Assembly: GCA_964016885.1 (NCBI GenBank)
Contig: OZ024758.1
Span: forward strand, 10,726,001-10,790,000
Length of the DNA stretch: 64,000 nucleotides
Direction of reading: 5' to 3'
From: Eledone cirrhosa
Lineage: Eukaryota
Below the pieces are notes generated by a model. The model searched no databases, was not told where the DNA came from, and worked only from the letters and a program-made list of their open reading frames with translations. Positions within the stretch are counted from its first letter, which is position 1, and each line of letters opens with the position of its first letter. Positions 8,700 to 40,157 of the stretch are shown piece by piece. Position numbers and translations under genes: made by a program.

Positions 8700-8838
8700 A
8701 TATATTTAGAAACACACAGATACATGCGGACACACACATATATACATGAATGCATCCGCACCCAACTCACAGTTGGGTGCGGATGCATTCATGTATATAT
8801 GTGTGTGTCCGCATGTATCTGTGTGTTTCTAAATATAT
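8700..8838. repeat. Perfect 68-bp-arm palindrome with 3-nt loop
   Basis: 8700-8767 is the exact reverse complement of 8771-8838, loop CAC. Confidence 0.95.
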
Positions 8839-9003: not shown

Positions 9004-9007
<4 letters not shown>

Positions 9008-9434
9008 CGTTTGTATTTGTAAAGCCAAAACAATGCAGAGATGGATATAGAATATAAATGCAAATGCAAAAGATAATGTTGACAATTAGTCTTTTACCTT
9101 AAATTTATTTAAATATCCTGAATTTTCGAGATACTATCTCTTCTTCGGAGGGAAGTAAAGTAGTTAAATCAGCGTTCTAAATAACTGATTTCCTGTCAGC
9201 ATGACTTGGCAAGCTATTTAGAACGCTGGTTTAACAACTTTACTTCCCTCCGAAGAAGAGATATTATCTCGAAAATTAATGATATTTAAATAAATTTAAG
9301 GTAAAAGACTAATTGTCAACATTATCTTTTGCATTTGCATTTATATTCTATATCCATACCTGCATTGTTTTGGCTTTACAAATACAAACGTTTATACCTC
9401 ATTACACAATGCTTCAAGTGAACTATAACTTCCT

Positions 9435-9437
<3 letters not shown>
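9004..9437 (+). mobile_element. Fold-back PLE remnant, family B copy 1
   Basis: Inverted arms about 9004-9186/9212-9394, unpaired tail 9395-9437, (TA)n on both sides, hammerhead-like motif in each arm. Confidence 0.85.
9117..9151 (-). ncRNA. Hammerhead-like motif with CCGAAGA core (mirror copy at 9247-9281, + strand)
   Basis: Minus strand: CCT-CCGAAGA-A-GAGAT-AGT-ATCTC-GAAA-A-TTC-AGG: stem I CCT/AGG, 5-bp stem II, palindromic AATT, UUC triplet. Position 4 is C instead of U in both arms. Confidence 0.6.
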
Positions 9438-30820: not shown

Positions 30821-30980
30821 ACTCTTTTACTCTTTTACCTGTTTCAGCCATCCGGCTGAGGCCATGCTGGGGCACCGCCCTTGAAAGAATGGAGTAAAAC
30901 TCTTAGAGTTCCCATGCCGGGAATCGAACCCGGGCCTCCTGGTTGAAGGCCAGGAATCCTAACCACTAGACCACATGGAA
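30821..30980 (-). mobile_element. SINE with near-intact tRNA-Glu(TTC) head and (GTAAAAGA)n tail, inserted in (TA)n
   Basis: tRNA head 30980-30909 continues into ...ggcggtgccccagcatggcc...gaaacaggtaaaagagtaaaagagt; no T-run terminator directly after the tRNA. Confidence 0.8.
30909..30980 (-). tRNA. tRNA-Glu(TTC)-like cloverleaf (SINE head or pseudo-tRNA)
   Basis: 72 nt; acceptor TTCCATG/CATGGGA, anticodon stem CCTGG/CCAGG with loop CC-TTC-AA, T arm CCGGG-TTCGATT-CCCGG; position 33 is C rather than U. Confidence 0.7.
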
Positions 30981-35670: not shown

Positions 35671-36599
35671 GTGGTATATATATATATATATATATATATT
35701 ATGTGGTATATATATATATATATTATGTGGTATATATATATATACACACACACACACATGATATAGAAAGCGAGAAGGAGAGAAAGAAAAAGAGACATAG
35801 ATACATGCCTACCTATATACAAAATTGTATATACGAAAAAAATATGTTTGTGCAAATTTCGAGAGGGGAATTATGTAAATATGCAGAGATATTGTGACGG
35901 GAGTCAATAGAAGTATTAGACATTTTGAAATATATATTAAAATTGAGTACTTCTCAAAAATATAAAGCTATTTCTCATTTTATCTGAAACACCTTTATTG
36001 AAATGTTCACTTCTGCGATAACAAAAAGCAATATCTCTTAAACTTTCTAGTGAAACTTCTTATGTTTAAAAACAAAAACACACACAAAAAATGGAATCGA
36101 AGAGAAATATTTGAGACAAGAAAGTATAACCACTTAAACTTCAAATGTGATTCAGGATTTACGAAATACTGTTGCTTGCCAAATCGTTTTAAACAGATAG
36201 CTAAATAATCAATGCTGAATTTTATAATATTTCTACTTGATATATCAATATAATCACTTTACACTAAAGAAAAATCAAAGTAGGGAAACGGAAAAACGTA
36301 GGGTTAATTCATAAGCTTTTAGGATCATGTATCAAGAAAAATAAAAGTGTTAAAGCTTTTTACTGCATGTTTCTAGGAAGGTTTATCTGGGCAAGAAGCC
36401 AAGGCAGATCAAAATAATTGCGTTTATCTTGAGGTAGCATAAACTACTTTAACAATTTCAAACAACTTACACCCGCACAGAAACACACACATACATACGA
36501 AACACGCGCGCAAAAACACACTCATGTATATATACATATATATAGAAAGAGCGAGACACACTGCCCCCCCCCCCCCACCAAATACACACACACACACAT

Positions 36600-39610
<3,011 letters not shown>

Positions 39611-39816
39611 TTCATAGGCACACCCCAACATGCATACACATTGATAGATACACTCACATACACATTTCCAGACAATTACATATTTGTTGATAAACACACA
39701 GCTTCAGTAAAACATTGTTTTGTCCTGTGATAAACTTTTTTTTTTTTTTATATTACGAGAAGAAGAAATCACGTTTGTGACCACCATCACACAGACACAG
39801 GTATATCTACACTCCA

Positions 39817-39847
<31 letters not shown>

Positions 39848-40117
39848 GGAGGAGGTTATAGTTCACTTGAAGCATTGTGTAATGAGGTATAAACGTTTGA
39901 ATATGTATAATAAAGCCAAAACAATGCAGGTATGGACATAGAAAAAAGAATGCAAATGCAAAAGATATTGTTGACAATTCGTCTTTTACCTTAGATTTAT
40001 TTAAATGTCCTAAATAAATCTAAGGCAAAAGACGAATTGTCAACAATATCTTTTGCATTTGCATTCTTTTTTCTATGTCCATACCTGCATTGTTTTGGCT
40101 TTATTATACATATTCAA

Positions 40118-40119
<2 letters not shown>
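39848..40119 (-). mobile_element. Fold-back PLE remnant, family B copy 2
   Basis: 39848-40010 is the reverse complement of about 9279-9436 (tail included); inverted arm 40011-40119. Confidence 0.88.

Positions 40120-40157
<38 letters not shown>

Follow-up and report, generated by a model that had tools for sequence, protein, structure and literature searches.

The 64,000-nt stretch of Eledone cirrhosa DNA analysed here (the window, whose first base is position 1) contains two copies of a repeat, family B, and the second of these, a two-armed insert at 39848-40119, raises the question of whether the end of a reverse transcript can preserve the position at which a ribozyme had cut its template. 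An earlier note on this DNA had predicted a hammerhead cut in copy 1, between 9120 and 9119 on the minus strand, and had observed that the long arm of copy 2 starts at A 40011/G 40010, next to the corresponding site, and folds back from there. It had concluded that the insert begins at the cut, that the reverse-transcribed template was ribozyme-cleaved RNA and that the unusual CCGAAGA core of the motif was, or had once been, active; if so, the 5' ends of family members should pile up sharply at the first base after the cleavage triplet (NUH+1) instead of being evenly spread. Both sets of coordinates proved correct. Positions within the repeat are given relative to NUH+1, which is position 0, with negative numbers upstream.

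The insert and its parent element

Copy 2 is derived from a Penelope-like retroelement (PLE; Table 1), whose terminal repeat (pLTR) it represents in 5'-truncated, two-armed form. Its long arm matches the pLTR of a full-length copy, L103, at 91-92% identity, the 109-nt inverted arm has a single mismatch to the long arm, and the tail holds the ATG of the element's ORF, at 39875-39873 on the minus strand. Both copies in the window sit in (TA)n, and only these two pLTR stubs were found within its 64 kb, with no coding part of the element. The insert does not, however, begin at the predicted cut: its outer ends are two priming sites, and the cut site is the internal junction of the arms. Because the boundary at that junction is blurred, both by the shared base 40011 and by an alignment of the long arm that extends up to 4 bases, to -4, if the template had UUU, this single copy is weak evidence.

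Table 1. Features of the two family B copies in the window
Feature	Positions	Strand
Copy 1, tail-less inverted arm; passes through the hammerhead	9006..9186	-
Copy 1, left arm: minimal type I hammerhead motif; predicted cut 9120/9119	9117..9151	-
Copy 1, tailed arm; starts at -91 and passes through the hammerhead	9188..9436	+
Copy 1, right arm: hammerhead motif; triplet UUA, predicted cut 9278/9279	9247..9281	+
Copy 2, (TA)n target flank, left	39820..39847	.
Copy 2, long arm: pLTR running from 40011, directly behind the predicted hammerhead cut, to 39848, where the tail ends	39848..40011	-
Copy 2, 42-nt tail, on one arm only; start of the element's ORF	39848..39889	-
Copy 2, arm junction at NUH+1; base 40011 common to both arms (1-nt microhomology)	40010..40011	-
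Copy 2, short inverted arm: pLTR from +8 to just before the tail-less priming site	40011..40119	+
Copy 2, (TA)n target flank, right	40126..40153	.

Folding back was likewise not the better description of the arms. The pair in copy 2 is more readily understood as two cDNAs, each with its own priming event, that were joined through their 3' ends, although the inverted arm of copy 2, taken by itself, may have arisen by pure snap-back of one cDNA. As a general source of inverted arms, snap-back of one cDNA was rejected: 34 of the 39 inverted arms seen among 83 copies lack the tail and stop at the second priming site, 42 nt before the tailed end, and inverted arms often reach further upstream than the direct arm (L037, L048, L074). 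The inverted arms stop at the tail boundary (query position 197 of 239); in full-length copies the tail continues into the ORF. There are two fixed priming sites, 42 nt apart. Immediately to the left of copy 2 lies a 3-kb (TA)n/TATG satellite (36598-39611), and a short, perfect-looking palindrome (8728-8831) stands directly left of the (TA)n flank of copy 1. A tRNA-like sequence at 30909-30980 on the minus strand (Rfam, 60.7 bits) is possibly a tRNA gene or the head of a SINE.

Family B numbers over 3,500 arms genome-wide; the arm query gave 2,783 candidate matches in the 3.0-Gb genome and the tail motif 2,004 exact ones. Longer copies carry a reverse transcriptase (RT) domain and then a GIY-YIG domain, upstream of the arm. 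In L103, an uninterrupted ORF of 858 aa, whose ATG lies inside the 42-nt tail, matches Pfam RVT_1 (E 1.7e-15) and, at residues 767-845, the GIY-YIG model PF01541, a match that is below the Pfam cut-off (E 0.001-0.006) but covers positions 2-74 of 78, with a VVY-x10-YVG motif visible in the region. In L082, L095, L103 and L114 the tail occurs again at a distance of about 3.14 kb (pLTR or partial tandem). We assign family B, as a pLTR, to an EN+ PLE with an RT as well as a GIY-YIG at the C-terminus, and the element is a new PLE family member. L103 lies on the minus strand at G000:C1:105462730-105469500, and its 5' end abuts (TA)n within -4 to 0 of the predicted cut.

The EN+ PLEs with a C-terminal GIY-YIG that are named in the excerpted text of PMC8557442 are Penelope/Poseidon, Neptune, Nematis and Hydra. 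Family B shares with them, as they are described there, a single ORF with RT and C-terminal GIY-YIG, the pLTR, partial tandems, an inverted 5'-truncated copy, a one-sided tail, (TA)n targets and a hammerhead in the pLTR; its tail, at 42 nt, compares with the 30-40 quoted for that group. Its two arm ends also correspond to the pair of internal RT start sites by which the tail is defined in PAc, the Anolis Poseidon element (Frangieh et al., 2024, PMC11167929, in the parts available); AT-rich targets and a hammerhead at the pLTR-ORF junction are further likenesses, as the proposed nicking of both strands would be. The predicted cut of family B lies 136 nt upstream of the ATG, whereas that of PAc lies 26 nt downstream.

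The hammerhead motif across the family

The motif in the left arm of copy 1 reads, on the minus strand from 9160 to 9100, ...CCCT CCGAAGA AGAGATAGTATCTC GAAA ATTC AGG..., with C at 9120 and A at 9119. In order, it comprises the CCT strand of stem I, the core CCGAAGA, an extra A, stem II (GAGAT/ATCTC), GAAA, ATTC and the AGG strand, corresponding in RNA to stem I CCU/AGG, stem II GAGAU/AUCUC and GAAA-AU-UC. In the right arm, the 3' strand of stem I is mutated at 9280. The earlier note placed the predicted cut after an NUH triplet, but its UUC occurs only in the left arm of copy 1, where the C at 9120 is a private change: across 79 intact sampled copies, the position preceding the cut holds A in 75, T in 3, G in 1 and C in none, which makes UUA the family triplet. 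The family motif has the same stem I and 5-bp stem II, together with a palindromic AAUU and the triplet UUA.

Among 83 sampled arms, in which GAAA is conserved, the core is CCGAAGA (the U4C variant) in 47 and CTGAAGA in 36, and the two cores sort by subfamily, with CCG in 18/18 arms of the 'TG' subfamily, CTG in 11/11 of the 'GACG' subfamily and CCG in all 22 visible cores of the subfamily of copy 1. Both cores follow the hammerhead consensus C3 U4 G5 A6 N7 G8 A9, with C for U4 in CCGAAGA, and GAAA corresponds to G12 A13 A14 A15.1. By its marker, copy 2 belongs to the 'GACG' subfamily, whose core is the canonical CTGAAGA. Intact copies give MFE folds that contain the type I hammerhead's stems I and II; the motif is not more stably folded than shuffled sequences (z 0.02 to 0.38), the MFE structure of a dimer folded without constraints differs from the active one, and both stems proved nearly invariant in this young family when checked for covariation. 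An Rfam scan of the window returned no hammerhead at the gathering score, only a tRNA.

The minimal type I hammerheads of metazoan PLEs, as the available part of PMC4209133 describes them, resemble the family B motif in having no helix III, a palindromic 15.2-16.2, a short helix I, an extra base between 9 and 10.1 and a G10.1-C11.1 pair; unlike them, family B has a U4C core that is fixed in several subfamilies, the triplet UUA and a stem II of 5 bp. U4C is a natural variant whose activity, according to an excerpt of PMC3088659, is low in vitro but sufficient in vivo in a viroid. A recurrent internal deletion (L228, L232, L234, L236, L246 and others) removes stem II exactly, via CGAA microhomology.

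5' ends at the predicted cut

In a small sample taken from contig C1, consisting of its first 95 distinct tail-anchored copies, the positions of the 5' ends are spread from +112 to beyond -250. Of the 75 copies that reach +5, 5 start within -5 to +5, one of which (L089) is a mis-call due to an internal deletion, and 69 read beyond -8. Ends occur at 0.14-0.28% per base, rising to 0.61% both at -5 to +5 and at -61 to -110, and a peak at NUH+1 is invisible in this sample, which is too small for the purpose. The excess at -61 to -110 is broad (19 of 62 copies at risk), corresponds to the 9169-9218 region of copy 1, lies near short palindromes and may mark a transcription start region or a stall zone.

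Genome-wide, we required a match to a 21-23-nt anchor together with the absence of the diagnostic G and C bases immediately upstream, a pattern that selects arms with a 5' end inside an interval of 8-10 bases. The test interval (-7 to +1) yielded 73 matches among 3,525 anchored arms, and the control intervals 41 among 3,373 (-18 to -8) and 45 among 3,057 (+23 to +32). The rows examined were 73/73, 41/41 and 39/45, respectively; merging identical rows left 70, 40 and 39, and dropping rows that reflected internal deletions, duplications or intact but mutated copies (9, 14 and 26 rows, mostly by an automatic rule, with 1, 3 and 2 dropped by hand) left 61, 26 and 13. The 61 starts in the test interval comprise 3 at +1, 34 at 0, 10 at -1, 3 at -2, 1 at -3, 3 at -4, 1 at -5, 1 at -6 and 5 at -7, such that 34 of 61 true 5' junctions lie exactly at NUH+1. 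The 25 comparison positions together hold 43 events, with a mean of 1.7 and a maximum of 7, or of 10 when no control row is dropped, and there is a slight excess of ends, 11 events in all, at the three positions -10 to -8 on the 3' edge of stem II.

When evenly spread breaks were simulated with the real flanks, 8.3% of starts appeared at position 0, against 56% observed (binomial P ~3e-21). A simulated true break at +1 gave 56% of apparent starts at +1, where 3 of 61 were observed, and a simulated true break at -1 gave none at 0; because neither yields the observed profile, the break is placed at position 0. The peak would move to -1 if a UUU triplet were assumed for every template, which is unlikely because UUU is rare (3/79). 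In a replicate with the subfamily of copy 1, 18 matches were found, 3 internal deletions were dropped, and 9 of the remaining 15 start at position 0 (P ~6e-7); the same type of search returned 0 matches among the uncounted arms of one small CTGAAGA subfamily. The sharp peak that the earlier note expected at NUH+1 is thus present in both data sets, and at base resolution the ends are not evenly spread. As a share of all anchored arms the effect is small: 34 of 3,525 is about 1%, or 2-3% once corrected for filter sensitivity and chance extension.

The 34 starts at position 0 represent 34 loci with different flanks, and their partner arms start anywhere from -400 to +45, which argues against any single founder or single microhomology. 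One truncated founder copy as the source of the peak was rejected on the differing flanks, and a later insertion at the site, into a copy already present there, was rejected because no upstream element half is present in the flanks of the 34 loci. The peak recurs in each junction class (inverted 22/41, direct (TA)n 8/12, other flanks 4/8), and tailed arms (17) and tail-less arms (10) both stop there. At 5 of the 22 inverted junctions both arms end at position 0, far above the base rate of 1-3%, and in the replicate both arms lie within 1 nt of the cut in L362, L364, L370 and L372. Some junctions are exact without microhomology (L161, L174, L178, L183, L320, L322), three at position 0 are perfect palindromes centred on the cut, and in others both arms end at 0 with short filler separating them (L319, L362, L364, L372). 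The base at -1 is T in 28 of the 34, C in 3 and G in 3, and since each G is explained by the partner sequence, there is no G excess and no sign of a G copied from a cap.

Cleavage of one kind or another seems to us a very probable explanation of the peak, whose best reading, which we hold with good though lesser confidence, is run-off of the RT on ribozyme-cleaved RNA. The excess at position 0 would then likely record the predicted hammerhead cut in living cells, and the proposal that cut RNA served as template gains support, for a cut that is itself predicted, from the appearance of the peak in two subfamily searches. The idea that full-length copies begin at the cut was rejected: among full-length or ORF-continuing copies that reach the site, 3/38 start within -4 to 0, none unambiguously at 0, and 35 pass through (59 rows from 116 pattern matches were considered, with arrays and unlisted or unretrieved matches set aside). 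Together with the 1% share, this passage through the site indicates that cut RNA is a minority template.

A cut might also leave its mark less directly, if the RT paused at a ligation scar, the 2'-phosphate or 2'-5' bond familiar from viroid biology, in an RNA that had been re-circularised. That most copies cross the site, and that an array of 16 + 3 units described below suggests circular templates, would suit such a pause, but the short filler where both arms stop at 0 is in keeping with run-off plus added bases, and we consider the pause improbable. We judge in the same way the possibility that position 0 is a minor polymerase II start inside the pLTR, with run-off from a capped 5' end. A pyrimidine is expected before a polymerase II start, whereas position 0 is preceded in the element by A; the lack of an extra G at -1 (3/34, all explained) is telling only if the RTs of PLEs copy the cap; the exact match to NUH+1 would be a coincidence; and the excess at -61 to -110, with 0.61% per nt against 0.14-0.28, is the better candidate for a start region. 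An internal promoter is nevertheless reported for the pLTR of D. virilis Penelope in the accessible text of PMC2377424.

Run-off at the cut also has to be weighed against a stall of the RT at the folded hammerhead or its dimer, with no cut at all. The slight excess at the 3' edge of stem II shows that structure can matter, and an equal rate of stops in U4C and canonical subfamilies is what a stall would give; a structural stop is, however, expected before a helix (at +3 for stem I, -1 for stem III and -8 for stem II) and not at 0, and stem I has only 3 bp in a weak fold, which makes a stall quite improbable. The rates themselves can be read in two ways: CCGAAGA subfamilies account for 8/34 of the position-0 starts and 18/83 of arms, and a similar share fits an active variant but also a stop independent of catalysis. 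Given the peak in two CCGAAGA-only subfamilies, the U4C core is likely active, as the earlier note had proposed, although copy 2, from which the proposal started, belongs itself to a CTGAAGA subfamily; moreover, since the core of a dimer cuts the partner strand, a canonical core could cut U4C RNA in trans. Chance or sequence bias, whereby AT-rich microhomology and the AGG start would make position 0 look hot, is already largely ruled out and has a negligible claim: all 34 starts keep an A that the (TA)n flank or the partner could supply in some cases, and filters and row dropping were partly manual, but the simulated and observed shares at position 0 lie far apart, several junctions are exact without microhomology, and neither control interval has such a peak.

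Possible cut, circular and tandem templates

In the mechanism that we propose for run-off on cleaved RNA, two hammerheads, most simply those of two pLTRs in one transcript, would pair via their AAUU palindromes to form stem III and, once paired, would cut after UUA. The RT-endonuclease would nick both strands of a (TA)n target and prime at two internal sites, 117-123 and ~160-165 nt downstream of the cut; on RNA that is cut and unligated, the cDNA would stop at position 0 after ~120-165 nt, and its end would be joined to the partner arm or the target via microhomology or short filler. Most templates would be uncut or re-ligated (circular or tandem), such that most copies would pass through the site, with uncut primary transcripts giving the broad excess at -61 to -110 and circles or tandems giving the longer copies. 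It is possible, though we put it somewhat below an even chance, that a helix-III-less U4C UUA ribozyme cuts germ-line RNA, that the RT loads the cut RNA, that the 97% crossing copies are re-ligated circles, and that the pLTR is circular RNA copied past its junction.

PLE hammerheads have been known since 2014, and their activity in vitro is low. Their function is described as unclear in the available text of PMC8557442, and Cervera and de la Pena (2014, PMC4209133), in the portion accessible, state that in vivo evidence for them is lacking, which is the evidence that a junction peak would supply. For the Anolis PLE, the excerpted account (PMC11167929) reports that hammerhead mutants left insertion in vitro unaffected and that no RNA-seq reads began or ended at the hammerhead site; family B, unlike PAc with its ribozyme dispensable in vitro and no RNA-seq end, has a genomic peak of ends at the predicted cut. 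The closer precedent is R2, in which, according to the parts of Eickbush et al. (2013, PMC3774820) at hand, the cut site of an HDV-like ribozyme predicts genomic 5' junctions, and junctions with variable microhomology occur when the cut is at the element end; ribozyme and element class differ from those of family B, and the cut of R2 makes full-length 5' ends, whereas here it would concern a minority of short arms. Our literature search turned up no earlier description of a comparable peak in PLEs; two 2017 papers outside that search, one by Lunse et al. (PMC5785218) and the other by Arkhipova et al. (PMC5850863), may bear on novelty. If the reading is true, genomic 5' junctions would be a base-precise read-out of the in vivo activity of Penelope hammerheads, and a genomic pile-up at NUH+1 would be cheap evidence of a cut in the pool of reverse-transcribed RNA. 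The approach is repeatable in any genome with many PLE copies, would predict where unusual ribozyme variants cut with no need for an assay, and opens the circular-template model of PLE replication to direct testing.

At one locus, L213 (G000:C4:15418500-15426500), nearly identical 344-nt units, 16 + 3 in number, form a two-armed insertion with arms that end at the two priming sites; every unit includes a full CCGAAGA hammerhead and the first ~120 nt of the ORF. Copying of a small circle from both nicks would be expected to give this pattern, and a long tandem transcript would give it equally. With tandem non-coding units that each contain a hammerhead, as in non-LTR retrozymes, L213 is classed here as a putative retrozyme-like derivative of the family B PLE, and its 344-nt array, set beside the metazoan non-LTR retrozymes in the available texts of PMC7229834 and bioRxiv 10.64898/2026.07.22.740005, looks like one in the making, derived from a pLTR. 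Copy 2 (39848-40119), with neither a hammerhead core nor tandem units, differs from the elements in those texts in being a monomeric stub of the pLTR from an autonomous family. There are other routes to tandem units as well, as shown by L139 (G000:C1:195537533 onward), where 4-5 tandem 80-nt units contain the tail and the ORF start without a hammerhead. Finally, a search for 3' ends at the cut, run without a control, gave 3 of 14 candidates; in L347, L349 and L351, the arm has its 3' end at -1/0 relative to the predicted cut, where it passes into the flank, and these ends could reflect priming at the end of the upstream cleavage product.
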